IMG/VR virus record: IMGVR_UViG_3300047994_000162
Span: 4,536-68,535 of that record
DNA length: 64,000 bases
DNA from: a virus
Reading direction: 5' to 3' (one strand)
This document shows positions 3,401-60,513 of the stretch, piece by piece. The first letter of the stretch is position 1, and each line of letters starts with the position of its first letter. The position numbers and the translations under genes were made by a program. Below the pieces are notes generated by a model. That model had not been told where the DNA came from. It did not search any database and saw only the letters and a list, made by a program, of their open reading frames with translations.

Positions 3401-4080
3401 CGCCGATCGACTATATCGACGCAGCCCGCGTGCCGAAAACGCTCAAGCCGCAGGAATTTGGCCTATGGAAAATCGAGCGCATCCGGGCCGGCGGCCAGAA
3501 ACTCAGTCCGACCGAAATGGCGATGCACCAGATCATGGTCGGATATCCCGATTATACGCTGTTGCGCCGCGTCACGATGGCTAGCATCCACATGGGCGGC
3601 GAGATCGTCATGGAGGACGGCATCGTCGAACTGTCGAAACATCTGCCGATCTGGATTGCCGCGCGCGGGCTGGTGCTGATCACCGGGCTGGGGCTGGGAT
3701 GCGTGGTGCGCGGCCTGTTGGTGAACCCTCGAGTCGACCACGTCACGGTCATCGAGATCGATCAGGGCATCATCGACGCCGTCGGGCCCGAGTTCGATGG
3801 CAACCCGCGCGTGACGATCTATCAGGACGACGCGCTGAAATGGGACGCTGGCGATCGCCGGTTCGATTTCGCTTGGCACGATCTATGGTGCGAGGGCGAA
3901 GGCCTCCACCTTATGCACGCCGAGCTTTTCATTCGCCATCGCAAGAACGTCGGCCAACAGGGCGCCTGGGCGTTCCCGCGCGACTTCGCAAAACTATACG
4001 GCCGCAAGCAATTCCCGCTGCTGGGTGCCCCAAAACAACCGAGGAATCTGGTCCGTGAAAAAGCGACATCCGAACTTTAA
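3397..4080 (+). CDS. Class I SAM-dependent transferase, spermidine-synthase-like
   Basis: VLITGLGLG glycine loop, VTVIEID acidic motif II, FDFAWHDLW motif IV. Confidence 0.75.
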   Translation: MTPIDYIDAARVPKTLKPQEFGLWKIERIRAGGQKLSPTEMAMHQIMVGYPDYTLLRRVTMASIHMGGEIVMEDGIVELSKHLPIWIAARGLVLITGLGLGCVVRGLLVNPRVDHVTVIEIDQGIIDAVGPEFDGNPRVTIYQDDALKWDAGDRRFDFAWHDLWCEGEGLHLMHAELFIRHRKNVGQQGAWAFPRDFAKLYGRKQFPLLGAPKQPRNLVREKATSEL

Positions 4081-4213
4081 GGGCGGCCGGATCATCGAGC
4101 CGCGCGGATACGCGCTGGTCTATGTCGGCAAGGGACATCATCTGGCAGACATTGCTGGAACCATTCGCCCGATACGCGATCCAGATGTCGGCCGCGTGGC
4201 CGCAGCGCGATAA
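4055..4213 (+). pseudogene. N-terminal stub of an HNH endonuclease
   Basis: HPNFKGGR...GYALVYVGKGHHLAD matches the HNH N-terminus; the expected GY..EHR/HNH core does not follow. Confidence 0.55.
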
Positions 4214-4325
4214 TTCGGTTTTCTACGGCTGTAAGCGACCGGGCGCGCATCAGATCACCTATGGCGATTTTCGCCGGGCGGCGTCGGTATTTCTAGCGCC
4301 GTCCACCAACCACGAAGGAGGCCCA

Positions 4326-4514
4326 ATGCCCTACCGCGTTCCACCCGGCTGGATTCTGATGCCGGAAAAGCCGACGCCCGAAATGTTGGCCGAGGGATGC
4401 AAACGCGCCCTCAGCACGTCGGTGCTGATGGACGACACCCGGTTCGCTTGCGAAATGGCCGTCTGGGAAGGTTTCGTCGCCAAACGCCCGGAACCGCCGA
4501 ATGAAACCAGCTAA
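4326..4514 (+). CDS. Small phage protein
   Basis: GAAGGAG RBS; PPGWILMPEKPTPEM motif common in phage small proteins. Confidence 0.55.
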   Translation: MPYRVPPGWILMPEKPTPEMLAEGCKRALSTSVLMDDTRFACEMAVWEGFVAKRPEPPNETS

Positions 4515-4622
4515 AGGCCAGCGTCCCGCCAGCCGGGCCGCCCAGGGCGCGTTATTCCGGCCCGAGCGCGGGAAAGGCCCATCGGAAACGACACAGGCCC
4601 TGGCGGGCGTCCCGCTGGGGCC

Positions 4623-4638
4623 TGTTTCACGTGAAACG
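4623..4638. promoter_or_regulatory. parS: parS-type centromere site
   Basis: TGTTTCACGTGAAACG, 15/16 match to bacterial consensus TGTTTCACGTGAAACA. Confidence 0.75.
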
Positions 4639-4706
4639 CCGGGCGGTACATCCGCGCCTCGGGTAGTGGGTCAGTTTGAAAAATGACCCTGAAAGATTTC
4701 GCTTGG

Positions 4707-5510
4707 TTAACGCGGTGCGGCTTTGAGTTCCGGGATGAATTTCTTGAGCGCACCGTACAACACGCCCGAAGATGTACCCTCATCTTTAGCTGGCGTGAAT
4801 CCTTGCGAGAGGTACCATTTCCAAAGCTTGGTATTGGGGCCGCCCTCACTATCCAGCATCAATCCCCACGAGGCGATATCCAGATTGCCATAGACCCGCC
4901 GGGCGGCATCAACGATCAGTGATTCCCCTATCCCCCTCGGAGCGCTGTCGCATCGGCCCATGAAGACGATGAGGCAGATGGCGGGGCTATAACGGGTCTC
5001 TGATTGGGGTGGCGTACCGTAGTGCTTCACGAGCATGGCGTAATCGACATCCTCGCCGAACGTCTCTTCAACGGCCTCCAGGTACGGCTTATGACCGTCG
5101 CTGGTTAGCTGGACACGATTGGCCAGTCTGCCCTTCAGATCGGCGACAAACTCAACAGCGGCGTTCGTGCTGCGGTCAGCGAGAAGCCAGCTAACAAGAA
5201 GCTTGGTATCCGCGCAGATCGCGGTCCACGTCCAGACGTCGCCAGCCCTTTCGGGGGCGGCCTTAGCTTTCTCGACGTTGCCAGCCTTGGCGTAAACGAA
5301 GCTCCAGATTTCATCCATCTGGACGCGCTTGCACGGCAGATTTCGAAGCGCCTTGTCCTGATAGGCGGCGCAGGCGTGACCGGCCTCAACTAGCAATTTA
5401 GCGACGGTATTTTTGCTGCATCCGGTCAGGCGGGTGACGGCCCGAAGCGACTGCCCCTCACAAAGAAGGTGCAGGATTTGGGCGCGCGTTTTTCGATCCA
5501 GCCTGTTCAT
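4707..5510 (-). pseudogene. IS1-family DDE transposase, C-terminally truncated and fused to a GNAT-like fragment
   Basis: HTH (SLRAVTRLTGCSKNTV), QMDEIWSF and LTSDG motifs; after YSPAIC the sequence switches to RGIGESLI...LWKWYLSQGF. Confidence 0.75.
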
Positions 5511-31227: not shown

Positions 31228-31443
31228 CTACGAGGATTCCTCGTGCTCGCCGCACCAGTCTAACACGGGATGAGTGTTCGGATAGAATTGCCTGACGACG
31301 TCTTTGCCCCTGTCGCGGATCACGACAAGTTGGGGCGGAAAGCGCCTGCAAAACAGGTCGTTAGGATTCCGCTTATCGAAATGACGGCAAGACCCGCAGG
31401 CCGCCGTTCCTATTCGGCCGGCGCCGGCTGGCTCGTTTTCCAT
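31228..31443 (-). CDS. Small 4-Cys HiPIP-like protein
   Basis: CGSCRHF...CRRFPP...DWCGEH. Confidence 0.6.
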   Translation of the reverse strand: MENEPAGAGRIGTAACGSCRHFDKRNPNDLFCRRFPPQLVVIRDRGKDVVRQFYPNTHPVLDWCGEHEESS

Positions 31444-33773
31444 TGCTCAAGTTCCTCTGCGATGGTGTCGGTGACATCGGACCAGATATGCGGCTGATTG
31501 AAGTTGCGTTGCCGGAACACCCGGGTGGACGGATACCAAGGGCTTGCCTCGTTCCATGAAGCGCCAGGCCGCCAACACATGAAATGCCAGGAACAGGCAT
31601 CGCGCTGGCACATCAGCCACACCGGCTTGCCCATGGCGCCAGCCAGATGCGCGATCGCGGTGTCGACGGTGATCACGAGGTCAAGGCATTCGATCAGCGC
31701 TGCCGTCTCTCCCCATGAGGGGCGCGCCGGCAGCACGTCCTTGAACACGCTGGCGGGTAAATACTTGTCGATTTGCGACCGTTCCGGCCCTACTTGCAGC
31801 CCGACCGCCAGCATATCGAGGTCAAGGCAACGGCTGATGATCGGCGTCAGTTCGTTGAAATGCATCGATTTTCGCATGCCGTACTCTTTCATCCAGATGC
31901 CCTCCCGGATGCCGGACGACCAGCAGATGCCGACCGTGCGGGTGTTCTTCGGCAGCTTGGCGCGCATGTTCGACACCAAGATCGGGTCCGCTTTTAGATA
32001 CGGCCCGGCCCACGGCACCGAATCAATGTCGGTCCCAAGCACCGCCGGCAGGCTTCCGATCGGAATGTGGTAGTCGAACGGCATGATGCCGAGCGCGCCC
32101 GGATAATCCTTCGCCTTGGGGACGACCTCAATCCACGGCATGCTGGAGCGCATCAGGTCGACGAGTTCGTCGGCGCATTCGTAGCGCACCTGATATCCGC
32201 GCTCGGTCAGCATCGTCAGATATCGGACCATGCACAGGTTATCTCCAGCGCCGGCCTCATAATGGACGTGGATGATCACCTTGCTGCCGTCGTCTTTGAT
32301 CGGCGGTTCGCCTTTCCAGCGCGGCAGCGTGAACCGAATCATCGGCAAGAACATCGCCGGATTGCTGCGCTGGTGTTCACGATGCTCGTGTTCGATCCAG
32401 CCCTCGGCGTAGCGGCCGATCGAATGCAGGGCCAGCGACTTGTTCCAATGCGCGGTGGCGGGATCGCGGCACCCCAGCGCGATCGCGCGGTCGAACAGCA
32501 CGATGGCTTCCTCGTGTTCATGCTCGCGGTAGGCCACCATCGCCAGGCAATGAATGGCGTCGGCCTCCCGATCGGTCCCCATGACCTTGCCGCATACCTC
32601 GCGGACCTTGTCATAGTCGGCCGTATCCAGCGCGATCGTCGCGCGATCGAGCAGGGCCTCCGGGTCCATCGGATCGAGCGAAAGCTGTTCCTCGTAGGCG
32701 GCGGACGCCTTTTCGGCATTGTTCATTTCGTGGTGGATGCCGCCCAGCAACTTCCACGCCGTCGCATAGGTGGGCGAAATCTGGGTCGCCCGCTTGGCCT
32801 CAAGGAGGGCGCTGTCCAGATTTCCCATCGGCATGAAGCACTTTGTGCATAGCTCCAGCCGATAGTCGGTCGCCAGCGGATCGGCCATCAGGGCCTCGCG
32901 ATACCAGTCCGCCGCGGCGCCGAGGCGTTGCCTAGCCAAGGCCATCTTTGCATAAAATGCACACGCCTCCCCATGCGCGACTCGAGCGGCCCCGCTGATC
33001 GGTGGCGTCGTGATGCCCAAGATCAACCGGTAAAGTTGTTCTGCCGATACCGCATCGTCGGCCTCTACGTGCGTGCGGGCACGCTCTACCAGCGTCGTCA
33101 GATCAGCATCGACCCGTTTTCGGGCCGGCGCGACATTCAGCCACCCGGTCTGATACGAGCAAAAAGCCATATCGGCACCGCACAACATCATGTGCCGCGC
33201 CACGATCAGGCCCTTCCCGCCGACCTCGGCGCGCTGGTCGCCATCGAGTGTCGCGGGCGAATCATCGATCACCACCAGCGTCTCGGGCCGGATCATCGGC
33301 ATGGACGCCATGAGCTCGGCGTGATGGTGGATCGCGCTGGGCAGCGGATCCCATGACGTGAAATCGAACGAGTCCAGATACAGCAAATGGACCGTAAGAC
33401 CGACGATGTGATGCCCGACCTCTCCCTTGGCGAGCAGCTTGAGATACACGATGCTATCGCAGCATGCGACCGTTGTGGCGCTGCCGACGTTCTTTCCGGC
33501 CTCGGCGACGGCCGCAGGGTCGATATCGACCGAATAAACGTGGCTGCCGGGATGCGATGCGGCGTAGCGATCGAACAGGACGGTGCTGCATCCGTCGCCC
33601 TGCCATGATTCCTCGATCGCGGGGTCGCGGCGCGAGCATCCAGTCTCGACGATTGTCACCGGGCCGTCGAAGCGGTCCAGATGCTCGAACATCTTGACGA
33701 AAGTATCGGCGCGGCCGATCAGATGCGGGCGTGCCTCGGCGTCAAACCACGCCCAGAAGGTGTCGCTTTTCAT
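31410..33773 (-). CDS. Methyltransferase-TPR-GT9-like glycosyltransferase fusion
   Basis: IVETG/SVDID/LLYLDS MTase motifs; multiple TPRs; EAGAGD, VGICW, LDLVITVDTAIAHLAGAMGKPVW, PWYPS.RVFRQ. Confidence 0.85.
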   Translation of the reverse strand: MKSDTFWAWFDAEARPHLIGRADTFVKMFEHLDRFDGPVTIVETGCSRRDPAIEESWQGDGCSTVLFDRYAASHPGSHVYSVDIDPAAVAEAGKNVGSATTVACCDSIVYLKLLAKGEVGHHIVGLTVHLLYLDSFDFTSWDPLPSAIHHHAELMASMPMIRPETLVVIDDSPATLDGDQRAEVGGKGLIVARHMMLCGADMAFCSYQTGWLNVAPARKRVDADLTTLVERARTHVEADDAVSAEQLYRLILGITTPPISGAARVAHGEACAFYAKMALARQRLGAAADWYREALMADPLATDYRLELCTKCFMPMGNLDSALLEAKRATQISPTYATAWKLLGGIHHEMNNAEKASAAYEEQLSLDPMDPEALLDRATIALDTADYDKVREVCGKVMGTDREADAIHCLAMVAYREHEHEEAIVLFDRAIALGCRDPATAHWNKSLALHSIGRYAEGWIEHEHREHQRSNPAMFLPMIRFTLPRWKGEPPIKDDGSKVIIHVHYEAGAGDNLCMVRYLTMLTERGYQVRYECADELVDLMRSSMPWIEVVPKAKDYPGALGIMPFDYHIPIGSLPAVLGTDIDSVPWAGPYLKADPILVSNMRAKLPKNTRTVGICWSSGIREGIWMKEYGMRKSMHFNELTPIISRCLDLDMLAVGLQVGPERSQIDKYLPASVFKDVLPARPSWGETAALIECLDLVITVDTAIAHLAGAMGKPVWLMCQRDACSWHFMCWRPGASWNEASPWYPSTRVFRQRNFNQPHIWSDVTDTIAEELEQWKTSQPAPAE

Positions 33774-33785
33774 AGATTTGCTCCC

Positions 33786-33801
33786 TGTTTCACGTGAAAC
33801 G
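33786..33801. promoter_or_regulatory. parS: Second parS-type site
   Basis: TGTTTCACGTGAAACG, identical to 4623-4638; intergenic; overlaps the RBS of the glycosyltransferase. Confidence 0.75.
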
Positions 33802-33802
33802 A

Positions 33803-34312
33803 TCAGATATTCGAGCCGCCGAGGGGGTCGGCGACGGTGTCGGTCTTGGCGACGGCCTCCAGCCGATGGCCGCAGTTCGGGCACGCCACCCATTGCGGCT
33901 CGACGTCGCGCTGGCAATTGGCGCATTTCGGCGCCGGGGCCTTTTCCTTTTCCTTCGGATGCAACCGGGTGCGTTCCTCGCCGACATAGCCGTCGTCGTA
34001 GAACCGGACCTGCCGGGTGCCGGCGCAGCGGTGACACGCGGAATCGCCGCCCTGGCTACCGACGCCAGCGCAATCCGGGCACGGCCCCATGCGCCAATGC
34101 TGCCACGGCGCACCATCCTTCAAGGCCGTGAGCGTGTGATCGAATCCGAGCGCCGGGCTGTGCTTGTTGCATCCGAAATCGGCTTTCGTCGGGATGCCGA
34201 TCTCGTGACAAGAGCCCTCGCCATCGGGCGCCCGGTAAAGATCGATCTCGGTCCCGTCGCTGTAGCGGGTAACGCTGGCGATCAGCCAATGGCTGCAATC
34301 CGAGCAATTCAT
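33803..34312 (-). CDS. Multi-Cys protein (HiPIP-like + DnaJ-type zinc finger + zinc ribbon)
   Basis: CSDC..W...C...DFGC; CPDCAGVG/CHRCAGT; CANC...CPNCG. Confidence 0.6.
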   Translation of the reverse strand: MNCSDCSHWLIASVTRYSDGTEIDLYRAPDGEGSCHEIGIPTKADFGCNKHSPALGFDHTLTALKDGAPWQHWRMGPCPDCAGVGSQGGDSACHRCAGTRQVRFYDDGYVGEERTRLHPKEKEKAPAPKCANCQRDVEPQWVACPNCGHRLEAVAKTDTVADPLGGSNI

Positions 34313-41293: not shown

Positions 41294-43228
41294 TTACTTG
41301 CCGAGGTTCTGGTGCAAGAACGTGCCGGTCCCGCGAAGCTGGGTCGCCCCAGCCATCGGGTCCATCCACGTGCGCGGCTGGCCGAAGAACTCGCGGATGG
41401 TATGACCATCGCGCTTGCGCTCGACTTCCCGCAGGCGGCCATCCGGGACATTGACCGGGTTGCGCGCCGTTTCCTTGGCCTCGCGATACACCTGATCGCG
41501 GACGATGCCGAAGCTGGCGTCATCAGCGAACGCGGTCGCGACATCGGCCGGCTTCCACGTCGGGCTGTGCTCCTTGAGCATGCGGACGCATCGGCGCTCA
41601 TACAGGCCGGGCGTCTCGCCCTGCAACGGCCGCGGCGCGTTCATGCCGAAATCGGCGAACACTTCGTCGGCGCGAGCCTGGCAATCGGTCAGAGCGTGAT
41701 AATCCGCATCGTTCATGTCCTTGGGGATCATGCCACGGACCTCGTCCAACTTCTTGCGGATATCGATCGAGTCGGCCTTGGCCTTTTCCTCGGCGTCCTT
41801 TTTATCTTTTTCTTCTTTTTCTTTTTTCTCGGTTTCCTCGGCGTCTTTCTTGGCCTTGTCGGCCGCCAGCTGCTCGGGGTCGCCCTTCTCGCGCTTTTCC
41901 TTTTCCTCGGCATCGCGGCGCGACTTGGAATCCATTTCCATGGAGTCCATCCGCTTCGCCAGCGAACCGACCGAGTCAGCGATCGCCTTCACGCTGTCGA
42001 CAACGGTGGAAAGCAATTTGCCGGCGTCGGCGTCCTTGCGCTCCTTGTCTTCGTTGTCCTTTTTCTCTTTTTCCTCAGCGTCCTTTTTGGCCTTTTCCTC
42101 GGCGTCGGCTTTCGCCTTTTCCTCGGCGTCCTTGCGGGCCGCTTCTTCCGCGTCCTGTTTGGCCTTTAGTTCCGCCTCGGTCATCGCTGAGTCCTCTCGT
42201 GATTCGGATCGAATGCCTGACGGCCCTTCGCCTTTGTCCCATACGCCCAATTCACACAGGGCGATATGATCTACTAGACTTGGGTCGCCCTCGAACAGAA
42301 CCTTTTGCTTCGAACCGTCTCGTAGATGCAGCGTCATCTTTCGATTGACGCTCCAGTCCGCGAAATTCACTCCGGGCGAAGTCGAAAGGTCCCCCTCTGC
42401 CATCATGCGGGCGACGTCATCGACGTAAATCTTGACGACAGCCCACACCTCGTCCCCAGCGATATACGGCAAAAACGTGGTCCCCACAACACGATCAGTA
42501 AACTCGTCGCTGGTCAGCAGCGCGGTCTTGGGGTGTTTGAAGATCACAGGCAGCCCGTTGCATCGCTGCAAGAACTCGTCGTTTAGGTAGATTTGCGCGG
42601 GCCTGTGGACAAATTCCTCGCCCTTGGTCCGGAACGCCACATCGGTGCCAGTGATGCGAATCGCGAACAGCCACATGTTCTCGTATCGCTGCGGCGAGAT
42701 CAGCCGGCCGTCGGCGATCGCTCGGGCGACGCCCAATTCGTTCAAAGTGATTCGGTCGAGCGCGATCTGGCATCCGGGATGGATCGGCTGCGGCGGTGCA
42801 TTCAGCGGCGCCCAGGCATAGCCATCATGCTCGTCGTTGATGACCGGCGTGAACTCATCGTCGACCCGCAACAGATACGTCGTGAAATCGACCGTCGGCA
42901 GCAACGCCACCGGCTGGGGCGGGACATCGACGATGGGAACAACCGGCGCGCCCTCCGAAACAGGGAGAATCGGGGACGCGCCGATGCCCGCCACGCCCTT
43001 GGGCGCGGAGCCTTTTGTTCTGGTGTGGAAAACTAGCAGGCCATCCGGGAGAAACCCGATCTCCTCGCGGCACTCCCGCTTGGCGCAATCCTCGGCTGAT
43101 TCGCCTTCCTCGCGACCGCCGCCCGGGAAATCCCAGCAGTCGCCGCAATCGGGTGCGTCGATGCGTCGCTTGAGAAACAGCGCATTGCCGGTCGACGCTA
43201 CGATCAGAATGCCCGCGGCCTTGTTCAT
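41294..43228 (-). CDS. NUDIX hydrolase-DUF2213-like prohead protease-scaffold fusion
   Basis: Nudix box [24 protein letters not shown]; PVIFKHP, LSTSPG, DHIALC; acidic/basic KKDAEE scaffold tail. Confidence 0.8.
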
Positions 43229-43428
43229 TTCGGACTTTTGGACCCCGCCCCGCCCGCGTCGCACGCGGCCCTCATCTGATCGACACTGTCGCACATCGCC
43301 TGCACGGCGTCACCCCGGGCCTTGCTGTAGGCGATCGCCTCGGCTTGCTTGGGCGGTTTGCCGGCGTTGATCTCGGTCGCGATATTCGCGCTGACCGCCT
43401 GGCGCGAGGATCCAGATTGCAACGGCAT
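43225..43428 (-). CDS. Small head-associated protein
   Basis: MPL.SGSS..AVSANI...GKPPKQA.AIAYSKA. Confidence 0.65.
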
Positions 43429-53942: not shown

Positions 53943-54179
53943 ATGCCGAAGCCAGCCCAAATCAACCGCCGCAAAGCTAACACTTTTACGGTCGAATTTG
54001 TCACCCTCAATTCGGCGTTCGATGAAGAGCCGCATTTCGAGATCGCGCGCATTCTTCGCGATATCGCCGACAAGATCACAGTCGGAATTTTCTCGTCACC
54101 TATCAGCGCCTCAAACGGCAACAGGGTCGGGAAATTCGAGTGCCGCGACAACAATGGTCTGGCGTTCGAGCGATTCTAA
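53943..54179 (+). CDS. Small hypothetical protein
   Basis: NSAF...EIARILR..A...NGNRVG. Confidence 0.55.
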   Translation: MPKPAQINRRKANTFTVEFVTLNSAFDEEPHFEIARILRDIADKITVGIFSSPISASNGNRVGKFECRDNNGLAFERF

Positions 54180-54871
54180 GCCGGCCCGGTAACATTCCAG
54201 AACAGCACGCGGCCCGCCCCATGGCAGGCCTTTGCTATTTCCCACGCCTTTGCATCGTAGTGGCGATCGCTGGGGAACGGTACCTCGCCCTTGAACGGTT
54301 TGGCGAACGGCAGCGCGGCGATGTGGATTTGCGCGCCCGCGACGTCGGCCGGCGCCAGCTCCCGGCCGACTTGCACCACATGCCGGCGGGCTTTCGGCCA
54401 GGCGGTCGCCAGCGCGCGCGCCAGCACGCCGGACCCGGATGCACACCAGACCTCGTCCGGCTCGATCTTGAGGCTGCTGGCGGCCTTGGCGATGGCCGCT
54501 ATGGCTTCGGGCATGTCGGCGCCGAATGGCATCAGCCGGGCGCCGCTGGCCTCGCAATATGCCTTGGCGCGGGCTTGAACGACAGTCAGGTATCCGGGGC
54601 TGACCATACAGACCCGGGCGCCCAATTCCTTCGCCAGCAGGGCGCGTGGGTGCGGCTCGGCCCGCTGGGCCACAAAGATCGTCGCCCGCTTGCCAAGGCC
54701 CTTGGCGACGGCTGCCAGGGCCGTCTGGGCACCACCTTCGGCCGGGCTGGCATAGACGACCTCATCCGCGCCATCGAACAGGGTTCCGAGGAACCGGGCT
54801 TTCGTGCCGCCCGGGAACAGATCGTCCCGCACCACCGTGATGCCGTCATGCTCGGATGTTTTCGGTTTCAC
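54176..54871 (-). CDS. PLP-dependent enzyme, fold type II (cysteine synthase / ACC deaminase-like)
   Basis: VVRDDL..GGTKAR (Schiff-base Lys), CASGSG phosphate loop, YDAKAW, LFWNV; GTGA coupling to MTase. Confidence 0.75.
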   Translation of the reverse strand: MKPKTSEHDGITVVRDDLFPGGTKARFLGTLFDGADEVVYASPAEGGAQTALAAVAKGLGKRATIFVAQRAEPHPRALLAKELGARVCMVSPGYLTVVQARAKAYCEASGARLMPFGADMPEAIAAIAKAASSLKIEPDEVWCASGSGVLARALATAWPKARRHVVQVGRELAPADVAGAQIHIAALPFAKPFKGEVPFPSDRHYDAKAWEIAKACHGAGRVLFWNVTGPA

Positions 54872-55965
54872 AGGATCTTCCCGTAGGCCTCCAGATCGGG
54901 CGAGCCAGGCGCCGGGGCTGGCTTTGATCCGGCCGGCGTCGCCGATTCGTCGATGATGGCGGCGAACTCGACGGGCCCGATTTCCCGGGTTGCTTTGACC
55001 GGGTCGCCCTTGACGAAGATCAGCACGTTTTGGTGGCTTTTGCCCAGCTTGCGGGACGCCTCGAACTGCTTTCCGGCGCGCATCGCCAGCGAACCGGCGG
55101 CCGTGACCAAGATCGCTTCGTTGTAGAGCCGCATCCCGCATGCCTCGAACGCCATCGCGCAGCGCCCCGGCAAATTGACGTACAGGCCCTTTTCGTCCCG
55201 GACGTCGCCGATCACCCAGCCGGCGAAACGATTGTTCTTTAGCCGCGCGCAGGCAGCCCGGATGATCGCCTCCTGGGCGGTGAAGAAATCCTCGGCGCCG
55301 AGCGTCGACAGATCGCGCTTGTCCTCGGAATAGACCTCCAGATTCCAATACGGCGGGCACGAAAACACGAAATCGAATTGCGCGCCCTTCGGCACCAGCG
55401 ACTCGATGTTGCGGCTATCACCCTCGATCCATTTCGGGAGCGGGGCTTTGCAGATTTTCAACTGAGACCGATTCGCCACCAGTTGCTCGGCGCGAAGGTC
55501 GATGCCGGTGTAATGCCGCCCCAGATGCGACGCCACGATGCCGCGCACCGAGCCGCCAGCGAACGGGTCCAAGATGCTGCCGCCCGGCGGACAGAACCAG
55601 CGATAGCAAAGCTCGGTCAGCACCGGATCGAATATCGATGTGCCGGTCTGGCCGGCCGACATGCCACCATCGATCTCGCCGGCAGCGATCTTTTCCTGCA
55701 CCCATTGCTGAGTGCCGACGGCGAGGCCACGGCCGCGCGTGTATGCCGTCTTGCCGGTGTTGCCGCCGCCCTTCTTGGGCGTCGCGTCTGCGGCTTTCTT
55801 TTTCTTGCGGTATGGGTCGGTGGTGGTGCGAAGCGCCAGCCCGCCGCGCAGATCCTCGGTGTGGCCGGCAGTCTTGGTCAGTGTCTTTTTGCCGTTGCCC
55901 ACCACGTGCTCCCCGCGCATCAAATCCTGCCCGAATGTCCGGGCGTTCGGTTTCTTTTTCCTCAT
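54868..55965 (-). CDS. Amino-type DNA methyltransferase-like protein
   Basis: ILDPFAGG motif I, GIDL, FSCPPY motif IV. Confidence 0.85.
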   Translation of the reverse strand: MRKKKPNARTFGQDLMRGEHVVGNGKKTLTKTAGHTEDLRGGLALRTTTDPYRKKKKAADATPKKGGGNTGKTAYTRGRGLAVGTQQWVQEKIAAGEIDGGMSAGQTGTSIFDPVLTELCYRWFCPPGGSILDPFAGGSVRGIVASHLGRHYTGIDLRAEQLVANRSQLKICKAPLPKWIEGDSRNIESLVPKGAQFDFVFSCPPYWNLEVYSEDKRDLSTLGAEDFFTAQEAIIRAACARLKNNRFAGWVIGDVRDEKGLYVNLPGRCAMAFEACGMRLYNEAILVTAAGSLAMRAGKQFEASRKLGKSHQNVLIFVKGDPVKATREIGPVEFAAIIDESATPAGSKPAPAPGSPDLEAYGKIL

Positions 55966-56630
55966 GCCGTGGCCGCCTTCTTGGCCGCGCGCTTGACCGG
56001 GTCGGGCTCCAGCATCGTCTCCGACATCTTGAGCAGATTTTCACCGCGGCCGAGTTCGGATTGAATGCCCAGCGCCAGCCAGGCGCGCTTGCGATCTTGC
56101 CACCAGCCCTCGCGCGCATTCAGCACCGTGAACGGCGCGATGCCGAAGCGTTCCGCCAGATTGCCGAGCGTCTGTTCTCGGGCGGCGCCGGCCGCGCCGG
56201 CCGATGCGACGAACATCACCAGATCGGATGAATTGAAGCCCGCCAGTTCGAGCGGATATTCCAGTTGTTTCAATTCGGTCAGGCCCGTCAGTCTCAGGCT
56301 TTCGTCCCAACCGCCGAGTTCGAACGATCGATTGTCGGAAAACACCAGCGCCAGCTTTTGCGCGTCCGTCAGGCCACGGATCACCACGACCGGGACTTCC
56401 TCGAGTCCGACGCGCTCCGCGGACAGCGTGGCGCCGTGGCCGGCCAGGATCATATCGGCGTCGTCGATCAGCACCGGCCGCGTGAATCCGAACTCGCGAA
56501 TCATGGCCGCGACGGCAACGATCTGGGCCTCGGGGTGTGTCTTGGGATTTTTGGGATGTGGCCGCAGATCGCGGATTTTTCGCCGCTCGGTCTTGTCCGC
56601 AGCGAACGCCAGTTTCGCGCCTTTAGCCAT
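55962..56630 (-). CDS. ParB/Srx-like N-terminal domain protein
   Basis: NPKTH...IREFGF..PVLID...ILAGHG...DNR. Confidence 0.8.
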   Translation of the reverse strand: MAKGAKLAFAADKTERRKIRDLRPHPKNPKTHPEAQIVAVAAMIREFGFTRPVLIDDADMILAGHGATLSAERVGLEEVPVVVIRGLTDAQKLALVFSDNRSFELGGWDESLRLTGLTELKQLEYPLELAGFNSSDLVMFVASAGAAGAAREQTLGNLAERFGIAPFTVLNAREGWWQDRKRAWLALGIQSELGRGENLLKMSETMLEPDPVKRAAKKAATA

Positions 56631-57123
56631 TCAATCCTCCCCGTTTGCACGGCATATCGACGAATCGTCGACCACCTCCGTCTATGCGCCTTATGTAGCG
56701 AGATGCGCTGGCCGCGCTGATCCCCAATTGCGCGCCGATGTCTACGAGGAGTTTGGTGCCAGCCATCTCCCGGGTAGCGCGAACAACCTCATCGCTTATG
56801 ACGCAAGAAAGGCGCCCCTTCATGCCGGCATCGATAGCATTGTCCTTTTTCGTGCCCTCGAACAGATGCCACGGATTGCAGCACGGCGGATTATCGCATT
56901 CGTGACACGAACACATGCCGGCCAGCAAACGTCGACCGAGTCGTTGCTCTAAGGCAAAAATATGAGATCGAACAACGCGGCGTCCCGAGCCAGCGTTGAA
57001 TATCCCGTACTCTCCAGTCTTGCCGGCGGTCCAAGGCCAGCACTCATCGGGAGCGCCGATTTGAACCTTTTCCCAAAACCGCTCAACCGCGTCTCGTTTT
57101 CTCAATGTGGTTGCTCCCCGCAA
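56623..57123 (-). CDS. HNH endonuclease
   Basis: RFWEKV...CWPW...CHECDNPPCCNPWHL..GT..DN. Confidence 0.85.
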   Translation of the reverse strand: MRGATTLRKRDAVERFWEKVQIGAPDECWPWTAGKTGEYGIFNAGSGRRVVRSHIFALEQRLGRRLLAGMCSCHECDNPPCCNPWHLFEGTKKDNAIDAGMKGRLSCVISDEVVRATREMAGTKLLVDIGAQLGISAASASRYIRRIDGGGRRFVDMPCKRGGLNG

Positions 57124-59630: not shown

Positions 59631-59824
59631 GGCTTTCGATTTCGCAGGAAGGCGGCGATCGCGGCGGCGGTGTCCGGGTCGACTTTCTTGACGGAATGCG
59701 ATGTCGGCCCGGCGGCGGCCTCCCGCGGCACAGATGGCTCACGGAGATCGAGGCGGGACAGCGCATGGTCGCGGCGTGCCCGCATCCTTTTCTGGTTCTC
59801 ATGGGCCTTGAGATCGCGCGGCAT
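59627..59824 (-). CDS. Small basic protein
   Basis: Coupled ORF. Confidence 0.45.
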   Translation of the reverse strand: MPRDLKAHENQKRMRARRDHALSRLDLREPSVPREAAAGPTSHSVKKVDPDTAAAIAAFLRNRKP

Positions 59825-60513
59825 CAGATCAAGTCCCCGCCGATGAACTCGCGCCCGCTGGCACGGCATGCCTCAAGGACGCCGTAGCCACCCGCGCAGG
59901 GGTCGACGATCAGGTCGCCGCGGTTGGTGGCCGCCCGGATAAGGCGCTCGGTCAGGACGTATGGCTTCGCGTGCGCGTGGATCCTGCGGTCACTGGACTC
60001 GAGCCAGCAATCGTTGATGCGATGGTCGGTCCAGACGCCGGCCGCTCGAGTCGGGGCTTTCTGGACGATTAATAAAAACTCGGAAACACAACGTGCCCGG
60101 CGCCCCATGCCCGGGCGTAGTTTGTTCCACGCGATCATGTCGACGATCTGGAGCGATTTGGCGCGCCGCAGCCATCGATGATAGTGCCCGGACGCCAGCG
60201 AGAACTTGTCCATCCACAGCATAAGATGGCCGGACGGATGCAGCACCCGGGCCGCTTCCTCGATCACGAACGCGATCGTGTCGTCGTCCATTGATTTCAG
60301 CTTGGCGCGACCAGCCTGGCGGGCGAACTCGTTGCCGAACGCCATCTTGTCCAGCACGGCGCGATATTGCGGGTCGAAAAAGAACATGACCGCGATGCGA
60401 TCGGGGAGGCGGGAAAGCAGTTCGACGGCATCAATGCGCTGGCGCGAGTTGCGCTCGACATTCTTCAAAGAAAGTAGGCGTCGATCGACGCCTTTGCCGC
60501 GCTGCGCGCTCAT
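59824..60513 (-). CDS. DNA N6/N4 methyltransferase (beta-class order)
   Basis: FFDPQY motif IV; HAHAKP; IVDPCAGG motif I. Confidence 0.8.
   Translation of the reverse strand: MSAQRGKGVDRRLLSLKNVERNSRQRIDAVELLSRLPDRIAVMFFFDPQYRAVLDKMAFGNEFARQAGRAKLKSMDDDTIAFVIEEAARVLHPSGHLMLWMDKFSLASGHYHRWLRRAKSLQIVDMIAWNKLRPGMGRRARCVSEFLLIVQKAPTRAAGVWTDHRINDCWLESSDRRIHAHAKPYVLTERLIRAATNRGDLIVDPCAGGYGVLEACRASGREFIGGDLI

Follow-up and report, generated by a model that had tools for sequence, protein, structure and literature searches.

A run of coupled genes closes the early operon of a viral genome

We analyzed 64,000 nucleotides of viral DNA (hereafter the window), which correspond to positions 4,536 to 68,535 of IMG/VR virus record IMGVR_UViG_3300047994_000162. 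The record is 68,535 bp long and carries direct terminal repeats, with a CheckV completeness of 100. On its minus strand, the early operon closes with a run of four coupled genes, encoding an HNH endonuclease, a ParB-like protein, a class-I methyltransferase-fold protein (hereafter MT, its relatives being called MT-like) and a short fold-type-II pyridoxal 5'-phosphate (PLP) enzyme. We propose that the last three may form a module for the post-replicative hypermodification of DNA. In window coordinates, the genes are:

56623-57123, minus strand: HNH endonuclease (phrog_1872, E 7.9e-26)
55962-56630, minus strand: ParB-like N-terminal domain protein, 222 aa (phrog_15396, E 2.9e-50)
54868-55965, minus strand: class-I methyltransferase-fold protein (MT), 365 aa (PF01555, 44.3 bits; phrog_12517, E 3.3e-100)
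54176-54871, minus strand: short fold-type-II PLP enzyme, 231 aa, GTG start (PALP, 39.7 bits; phrog_7093, E 5.6e-55)

The first-pass annotation had described the last three as coupled through ATGA and GTGA overlaps, and both overlaps are read directly in the sequence, with the open reading frames (ORFs) at the positions listed. The stop codon of the ParB-like gene shares ATGA with the start of MT, within GGCATGAGG, and the stop of MT shares GTGA with the start of the PLP gene, within CCTGTGAAA. The PLP gene begins with the GTG at 54871, and its homologues start at the equivalent site.

The PLP protein is a relative of phage decarboxylases that act on DNA

The PLP protein matches the Pfam family PALP at 39.7 bits (cut-off 35) and aligns over residues 8-228 with positions 15-278 of the 279-position profile of phrog_7093. 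Gp52 of Pseudomonas phage M6 falls in the same PHROG (E 2.2e-159). Aligning our PLP family alignment to gp52 with hhalign gave 98.5% probability (E 1.5e-15, 216 columns) and placed K24 of the window protein on K36 of gp52. By BLASTP the two proteins share 23% identity (E 2e-4), the window protein being 47 residues shorter, and both carry a C-terminal PFPxxxxYDxKAW...FWN signature, which reads PFPSxxxYDAKAW...FWNV in the window family. What the window protein shares with M6 gp52 and ViI gp226 is thus phrog_7093, a short fold-type-II architecture, a lysine near the N-terminus (K24/K36), the PFP...YDxKAW...FWN signature and a position among DNA-metabolism genes of a phage. A tblastn search with gp52 returned 68 phage records, one of them a Pseudanabaena phage. 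Purified gp52 and ViI gp226 are described as yellow PLP proteins that decarboxylate amino-acid:nucleobase conjugates in polymeric DNA; K36 was proposed as the aldimine lysine of gp52, and gp226 was modelled on the structure 1j0a (Lee et al., NAR 2021, PMC8989533, consulted sections). That related PLP enzymes process amino-acid adducts in M6 and ViI had been stated in the first-pass annotation; this is correct, and the sequence relationships show that it extends to the window protein by homology and not by analogy alone.

An AlphaFold model of the PLP protein (pLDDT 97.7) and its neighbors in the Protein Data Bank (PDB) agree on fold type II, as initially assigned. The best neighbors are D-cysteine desulfhydrase and the 1-aminocyclopropane-1-carboxylate (ACC) deaminase homologue 1j0a, the latter ranking first by TM-score (0.72-0.82 on the query and about 0.5-0.6 on the targets across the search), and serine racemase and threonine deaminase are also near. 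In 67 representatives that are 38-64% identical to the window protein, G22, K24 and G148 are invariant and about 20 positions are at least 90% conserved, including RDD15-17, Q49, R70, W142, G146, Y205, K208, W210 and W225-N226. In a profile search K24 falls on the lysine that binds PLP in tryptophan synthase beta (TrpB), and it is the predicted Schiff-base lysine, with G146-S-G148 as the predicted phosphate loop. This conservation of the predicted PLP site points to purifying selection on a working enzyme rather than a relic. Taken with the kinship to gp52, we predict that the protein is a decarboxylase of a DNA-tethered amino acid.

The family comprises at least 1605 proteins of similar length; 1210 cluster representatives were found at E <=1e-3, 184 of them at <=1e-30. 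A phmmer search of PDB sequences returned chance matches to ribosomal protein L21 only, so that profile and fold searches were needed, and a plasmid collection yielded no relative. We rejected an identity as ACC deaminase or D-cysteine desulfhydrase: there is no equivalog-level match, since the sole NCBIfam hit, PRK08246, scores 28.9 bits where the cut-off is 331, and the protein has 231 aa, compared with about 320-340 aa for the full-length two-domain enzymes.

The partners of the thymidine pathway are missing

In phages M6 and ViI, a DNA kinase and an amino acid:DNA transferase place the amino acid on 5-hydroxymethyl-deoxyuridine (5-hmdU). Neither the transferase family (PF18724) nor the 5-hmdU DNA kinase family (PF18748) matches anything in the complete 68,535-bp genome, nor in the complete genomes of the module-bearing Microcystis phage Mae-JY30, Erythrobacter phage ZS04 and Mycobacterium phage Vincenzo, while M6, used as a positive control, matches both. 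Thymidylate synthase and the S-adenosylmethionine decarboxylase family AdoMet_dc are likewise absent from the 68,535-bp genome. The earlier failure to recognize M6/ViI-type partners in the window therefore extends to the whole genome and to three other phages, and the thymidine hypermodification pathway can be ruled out here.

With its usual partners missing, some other enzyme must supply the substrate of the PLP enzyme. MT is the sole candidate that travels with the PLP gene, and its ligand, S-adenosylmethionine (SAM), is itself an alpha-amino acid, indeed the only amino acid that this neighboring enzyme is built to bind. To our knowledge, the phage hypermodifications known to bear an amino acid or an amine are built on 5-hydroxymethyl-pyrimidines via a kinase and an amino acid:DNA transferase. 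Here the kinase, the transferase and the thymidylate synthase of deoxyuridine monophosphate (dUMP) hydroxymethylase type are all absent, and the partner is instead a SAM-binding enzyme of methylase fold, with the implication that the modified base and the amino-acid donor would not be those of M6 and ViI.

A sulfur modification of the Dnd/Ssp kind, which combines a ParB-like protein, a 3'-phosphoadenosine-5'-phosphosulfate (PAPS) reductase and a cysteine-desulfurating PLP enzyme, was considered because a PAPS-reductase gene of Erythrobacter phages lies five genes upstream of the module. We rejected it, as the window ORFs that we scanned include no PAPS reductase.

MT is a permuted amino-methyltransferase-like protein that is split from its ParB-like domain

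MT matches PF01555 (N6_N4_Mtase) in two stretches at 44.3 bits, above the gathering cut-off of 26.7. Canonical amino-methyltransferases have a motif IV of the form (D/N/S)PP(Y/F) and a motif I of the form FxGxG. In MT, motif I is present as DPFAGGSVRG (residues 133-142) and motif IV reads SCPPY (residues 202-206), with Cys at the position usually held by D, N or S. Motif I precedes motif IV, whereas the PF01555 model, of beta class, has IV before I; the protein is thus permuted, with residues 120-161 aligning to model positions 174-215 and residues 182-224 to the N-terminal SPPY region of 2zie. The amino-methyltransferase fold and the CPPY motif pointed out from the sequence alone are both present, and the motif is not particular to PLP-linked genes: it is common to the whole ParB-MT family (80 SCPPY and 2 TCPPY), including unlinked and decarboxylase-linked members. 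We therefore discarded CPPY as a marker of the PLP linkage.

The first 100 residues of MT form a Lys/Gly-rich, disordered linker. In the structure model, residues 1-85 have a pLDDT below 50, and the class-I core is confident (pLDDT >90). Its structural neighbors of lowest root-mean-square deviation are the tRNA N2-methylguanosine methyltransferases Trm11, TrmN and Trm14, which have the identical motif order; the nearest solved sequences are N4-cytosine and N6-adenine DNA methylases. Pfam matches comprise PF01555 and three weak methyltransferase families, and the spermine/spermidine synthase family is not among them. MT is predicted to be a SAM-dependent 3-amino-3-carboxypropyl (acp), or methyl, transferase acting on DNA. 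The ParB-linked [ST]CPPY family to which it belongs extends over phages of Alphaproteobacteria, cyanobacteria, Bacteroidota, Firmicutes, Actinobacteria and haloarchaea. We found no biochemically characterized member of the ParB-fused phage methylase family (phrog_498) in the literature searched.

The protein encoded just upstream matches ParB_N (PF02195) at 19.3 bits (E 1.2e-3), under the Pfam cut-off of 26.3, and PHROG ParB-like families at 2.9e-50 to 3.9e-13. The C-terminal third of this ORF (about residues 150-222, with the motif PFTVLNAREGWWQDRKRAWLALGI) is part of the methylase module, as it aligns to phrog_498 (positions 29-230) and phrog_12517 (positions 25-63). In both Erythrobacter phage ZS04 and Enterococcus phage phiFL3A, ParB and MT are joined in one polypeptide; together with the shared C-terminal module, this indicates that the two window proteins are the split form of one protein. 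The split lies at 55962-55965, where several relatives, such as ZS04 and the locus L020 (518 aa), have one open frame.

The nucleotide-binding box of ParB proteins is GxxRxxA; its arginine is absent from the window protein (AGHGATLSA), and ZS04 has AGHGRTMAA. Residues of this box type are reported to be dispensable in phage thymine dioxygenases that are activated by ParB-like proteins (PMC13229309, consulted sections). By analogy, the ParB-like domain is probably a DNA-loading or activator part.

The MT-like and PLP genes are linked and repeatedly fused

We assessed linkage in 80 viral loci, 72 of which had at least 800 nt of upstream DNA, requiring an MT-like gene on the same strand whose end lies upstream of the PLP gene at a distance of at most 400 nt. 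This arrangement was found in 69 of the 72 loci, and a ParB match lay upstream of the PLP gene in 56 of the 58 viral loci with enough DNA. A second set comprised 63 bacterial loci, mostly alphaproteobacterial prophages; 51 had a near-full PLP gene and 49 of these enough upstream DNA, the MT-like gene adjoining the PLP gene in 46. Conservation of the neighborhood, which had been proposed as a check, thus holds in both sets and is accompanied by fusions.

Six loci were exceptions, at least two of which are accounted for by insertions: IS66-family genes lie upstream of the PLP gene in one (L106), and in another (L046) a Mom-like gene stands between the MT-like and PLP genes, at 4555-5004 of that locus (phrog_1384, E 1.5e-36; Pfam Mom, just 4e-4). 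The Mom-like gene hints at further tailoring of the adduct, for example by acylation. Among the others, a T5orf172 gene is found just upstream of the PLP gene, with the MT-like gene on the opposite strand (L076), the MT-like gene is adjacent on the opposite strand (L074), the PLP gene is broken (L119), or the upstream genes are unrelated (L090). Scans seeded with divergent representatives returned few loci (none for P0272, two for P0211 and nine for P0286), so that linkage among distant members rests on fusions and a handful of loci.

To survey fusions, we took 19 longer proteins from one search and scanned 37 long PLP representatives for domains; PF01555 is present in 18 of the 37. At least five fused or adjacent layouts exist, involving two different MT families:

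MT-PLP fusion
ParB-MT whose motif I-II and III-IV halves are separated by an inserted PLP domain (ZS04, Pseudanabaena phage Pam4 gp70, P0129, the 839-aa P0135, P0138)
PLP-ParB-MT(SPPY) fusion
MT(SPPY)-PLP, with a second MT family carrying GWGDR...TSPPYxxVExY
second-family MT(SPPY) directly upstream of a separate PLP gene, in a T4-like context

Judging from these sequences, the independence of the linkage evidence would come from the fusions and not from the locus counts. In Mycobacterium phage Vincenzo, the ParB-MT gene (gp1) is overlapped by a gene for a PALP protein (gp2), which matches the PLP family profile at 95.8%. Complex prediction for the MT core (residues 100-345) with the PLP protein gave an ipSAE of 0.00 in both runs, which were made without controls, and speaks neither for nor against binding.

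Other contexts of the PLP domain were also seen. It is fused to DUF3102 (3e-8 and 2.6e-7) and to weakly matching YunG-family regions in P0192, P0207, P0142, P0252, P0264 and P0266. On a 154-kb viral contig (L159), a divergent family member at 4001-4714, with 35% identity to P0286, sits beside genes of ankyrin/F-box and DNA polymerase beta-like type and lacks a methylase-like neighbor; it may point to another role for the enzyme in a giant virus.

A sister clade of MT-like proteins is tied to SAM decarboxylases

In Croceibacter phage P2559S, the ParB-MT gene gp66 is overlapped not by a PLP gene but by gp67 (L084:3701-4021), which encodes a 106-aa protein matching AdoMet_dc (2.1e-19), the pyruvoyl type of SAM decarboxylase, with the ES/H self-processing motif visible. 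The same arrangement of ParB-MT and AdoMet_dc is repeated in Stutzerimonas phage ZRG1 (L245:2809-3198). When viral contigs were scanned with gp67 as the seed (L161-L240), a ParB-[ST]CPPY gene lay upstream on the same strand in 73 of 80 loci, and in most of these it overlaps the start of the decarboxylase gene. Members of one MT-like family are thus linked to decarboxylases of two unrelated kinds, both of which act via a Schiff base with the alpha-amine.

The two classes differ in the cofactor loop. PLP-linked and unlinked family members carry motif I as DPFAGGSVRG, and 69 of 74 AdoMet_dc-linked ORFs have D-x-F-[AS]-G-D-[STA]-V-F-G instead, the remaining five being two regular-expression mis-hits, two truncated ORFs and one second ORF at a locus. 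We compared columns between 64 distinct PLP-linked and 57 distinct AdoMet_dc-linked MT-like sequences: of the 58 columns that reach at least 90% conservation in each class, eight differ between the classes, including G138D, R141F, Y152F, W179Y and G182D. Position 138 is Asp in 57/57 AdoMet_dc-linked and Gly in 64/64 PLP-linked sequences, and position 141 is Phe in 98% of the former and Arg in the latter. In a quick IQ-TREE phylogeny of MT-like proteins, the AdoMet_dc-linked ones group together in one clade (SH-aLRT 95).

In spermidine synthase, an Asp of the glycine-rich loop selects against carboxylate. If the corresponding residues here contact the ligand, a glycine-rich cofactor loop that has lost an Arg and acquired an Asp would be expected for a ligand without a carboxylate, while retention of the unlinked members' loop by PLP-linked proteins would be expected if intact SAM is bound and decarboxylation follows transfer. 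The tie of a sister clade to a true SAM decarboxylase lends unforeseen support to the idea of acp transfer with processing by the PLP enzyme.

Genomic context of the module

The replication and recombination genes of the minus strand, including a RusA-like resolvase and a primosomal/DUF1376 protein, lie 5' of the four-gene run. Beyond the module come a convergent block of small plus-strand genes and then the terminase, portal, head and sheath genes, a setting that places the module in the position usual for phage methylases. The HNH gene overlaps the start of the ParB-like gene by 8 nt and is probably packaging-associated; we found no HNH homologue beside the module in 143 related loci.

The same phage encodes a second, ordinary N6_N4 DNA methylase at 59824-60513 on the minus strand (PF01555, 1.1e-13; phrog_67), so that plain methylation is already covered. 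Also on the minus strand, a gene at 41294-43294, between the head-morphogenesis and capsid genes, encodes a 666-aa protein with an N-terminal NUDIX domain and a match to the large phage family phrog_6216 (2e-133), and one at 31410-34037, inside the structural region, encodes an 875-aa protein with tetratricopeptide repeats and a weak match to Glyco_transf_9 (heptosyltransferase).

A candidate route to aminopropylated DNA

Starting from what the sequences show about gene arrangement, homology, linkage and fusion, about the conserved catalytic residues and about the missing thymidine-pathway partners, we infer which group is transferred and to which atom, the decarboxylation step and the part played by ParB as follows. 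The ParB-like domain would bring the enzyme to duplex phage DNA or activate it there. MT would bind SAM and, instead of or besides the methyl group, transfer the acp arm to the exocyclic amino group of a flipped base, with methylthioadenosine as the by-product. The N4 of cytosine is a first guess for the target, suggested by the S/C-PPY motif together with the nearest sequences of solved structure; the N6 of adenine and the N2 of guanine are other candidates. The PLP enzyme would then capture the tethered amino acid through its alpha-amine as a Schiff base and strip off the carboxylate, leaving an N-(3-aminopropyl) base with a positive charge at neutral pH. The sister clade would arrive at this product by the reverse order, with the pyruvoyl enzyme making decarboxylated SAM and the MT-like enzyme serving as an aminopropyl transferase. 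Judged on sequence and genomic context, we consider the chances of the scheme proposed for the window, with acp transfer by MT, decarboxylation by the PLP enzyme and help from ParB on duplex DNA, to be about even. A broader extension, to which we hold only tentatively and which we think rather doubtful, is that the whole ParB-linked [ST]CPPY family consists of DNA acp or aminopropyl transferases with two interchangeable decarboxylation routes, members without a decarboxylase leaving a zwitterionic acp base; SAM-derived bases bearing an amine would then be a class of DNA base not seen before.

Several observations weigh against the proposed scheme. Motif I and S/C-PPY appear to fit an ordinary amino-methyltransferase fully, and the decarboxylase-free relatives phiFL3A gp36, Listeria phage B054 gp77 and Fusobacterium Funu2 carry the identical SAM loop and may simply methylate. 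The loci in the linkage sets are close relatives (62-74% identity), so that their counts overstate independence. Because the AdoMet_dc-linked proteins form a single clade, the switch from Gly to Asp and from Arg to Phe is one evolutionary event and not replicated evidence, and contact between the loop residues and the cofactor carboxylate is assumed. On the PLP side, pairwise identity to gp52 is low, at just 23% (E 2e-4), fold-type-II enzymes catalyze many reactions, and Vincenzo gp2 looks nearer to the canonical ACC deaminase/D-cysteine desulfhydrase, with a YEGK motif.

The simplest alternative is an ordinary orphan N4-methylcytosine or N6-methyladenine methyltransferase with a ParB domain, the PLP enzyme being an accessory that does not act on DNA but removes S-adenosylhomocysteine (SAH), degrades SAM as an anti-restriction measure or serves as an auxiliary metabolic gene. 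The score of PF01555 above its cut-off, classical motifs I and IV that appear intact, the N4-cytosine and N6-adenine DNA methylases among the nearest solved sequences and the existence of decarboxylase-free members annotated as methylases all speak for it, and in the genome paper on Erythrobacter phage R6L the fused protein is handled as a methylase of CcrM type, with ParB unmentioned in the sections consulted (PMC5463345). Such a methylase would leave unexplained why the PLP domain was repeatedly fused to two MT families, in some cases by insertion inside the fold, why the PLP protein is kin to DNA-acting decarboxylases, and how a SAM decarboxylase came to accompany a sister clade whose cofactor loop is remodelled. 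We also know of no fold-type-II enzyme that degrades SAH, which counts against that accessory role, and we regard this alternative as unlikely.

Two further possibilities keep the idea of an adduct and change the part played by the PLP enzyme. It could decarboxylate free or enzyme-bound SAM, as an analogue of the pyruvoyl AdoMet decarboxylase, MT then being an aminopropyl transferase. Both decarboxylases fill one slot, just downstream of and overlapping the MT-like gene, which is the classic pattern of non-homologous replacement, and fusion could channel the cofactor. This order is nonetheless improbable in our view: PLP-linked MT proteins keep the G138/R141 loop of unlinked, presumably SAM-binding members and not Asp/Phe, which favors transfer before decarboxylation, and the characterized PLP relatives act on DNA-tethered substrates (PMC8989533, consulted sections). 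Alternatively, the adduct could be installed and the PLP enzyme could deaminate it to a keto acid, remove it by elimination or racemize it, resulting in some other undescribed base. That the nearest solved folds are D-cysteine desulfhydrase, an ACC deaminase homologue, serine racemase and threonine deaminase would fit such chemistry, as would the YEGK of Vincenzo gp2 and the window's Y205-D206-x-K208, which we take to resemble the Y-E/T-G-K motif of the desulfhydrase/deaminase group. The only characterized members of phrog_7093 are decarboxylases, however, and the parallel with the SAM decarboxylase of the sister clade points to CO2 loss, so we give reactions of this kind very little credence.

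Relation to known systems and significance

The proposed aminopropylation module has relatives in several known systems. Among them are the ParB-fused orphan methyltransferases of phrog_498, such as phiFL3A gp36 and Listeria phage B054 gp77, which share the ParB domain with a permuted MT, the motifs DPFAGGSVRG and [ST]CPPYxxLExYS and the position before the terminase genes; they have no decarboxylase beside their gene, whereas the window form is split in two ORFs and followed by the PLP enzyme. Transfer of SAM-derived groups other than methyl is also known elsewhere: TYW2, Tsr3 and TapT transfer the acp arm of SAM to RNA, spermidine synthase transfers the aminopropyl group of decarboxylated SAM, and both TYW2 and spermidine synthase have this fold. 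The resemblance to these enzymes is mechanistic only, since their substrates are RNA or polyamines and MT has no Pfam match to their families.

In phage DNA, CmoX, from the carboxymethylcytosine pathway of Synechococcus phage S-B43, is a methyltransferase homologue; the group it transfers is not methyl and comes from a SAM analogue that a neighboring gene provides, and it often occurs with ParBc proteins (Nat Commun 2025, PMC12783734, consulted sections). The CmoA/CmoX pair therefore resembles the window module in combining a phage methyltransferase homologue, a neighboring SAM-tailoring enzyme and ParBc co-occurrence. CmoX is a homologue of C5-cytosine methylases that uses carboxy-SAM, however, while here the enzyme is of amino-methylase type and the tailoring would be a decarboxylation, before transfer in the AdoMet_dc clade or after it in the PLP clade. 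ParB-like proteins also activate phage thymine dioxygenases on double-stranded DNA (PNAS 2026, PMC13229309, consulted sections), another case of a ParB-like gene beside a post-replicative base-modifying enzyme, which needs the ParB-like protein to act on such DNA; there the partner is an iron/2-oxoglutarate-dependent dioxygenase, whereas the window family usually has ParB fused to the enzyme. In the openly accessible literature searched, we found no description of a ParB-methylase-PLP module or of acp or aminopropyl bases in phage DNA, and the word "aminopropyl" does not occur in the 2025-2026 papers and reviews on phage DNA modification that we examined. The components belong to known families; their combination, the logic of SAM as the amino-acid donor and the predicted product would be new.

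If the proposed route holds, phages would make an amine-bearing base by a different logic, with SAM as the amino-acid donor and through an enzyme that annotation pipelines call a DNA methylase. Transfer of acp or aminopropyl to DNA would be a new reaction for methyltransferase-fold enzymes, and it would explain the presence of ParB domains on so many phage "methylases". Variants are carried by cultured phages, including Mycobacterium smegmatis phage Vincenzo, Erythrobacter phages R6L and ZS04, Croceibacter phage P2559S and Stutzerimonas phage ZRG1, which makes the question directly testable. Were the route to hold, many methylase annotations in phages and prophages would hide a bulkier, charged mark, one that should affect restriction, CRISPR and base-calling by nanopore and PacBio sequencing.

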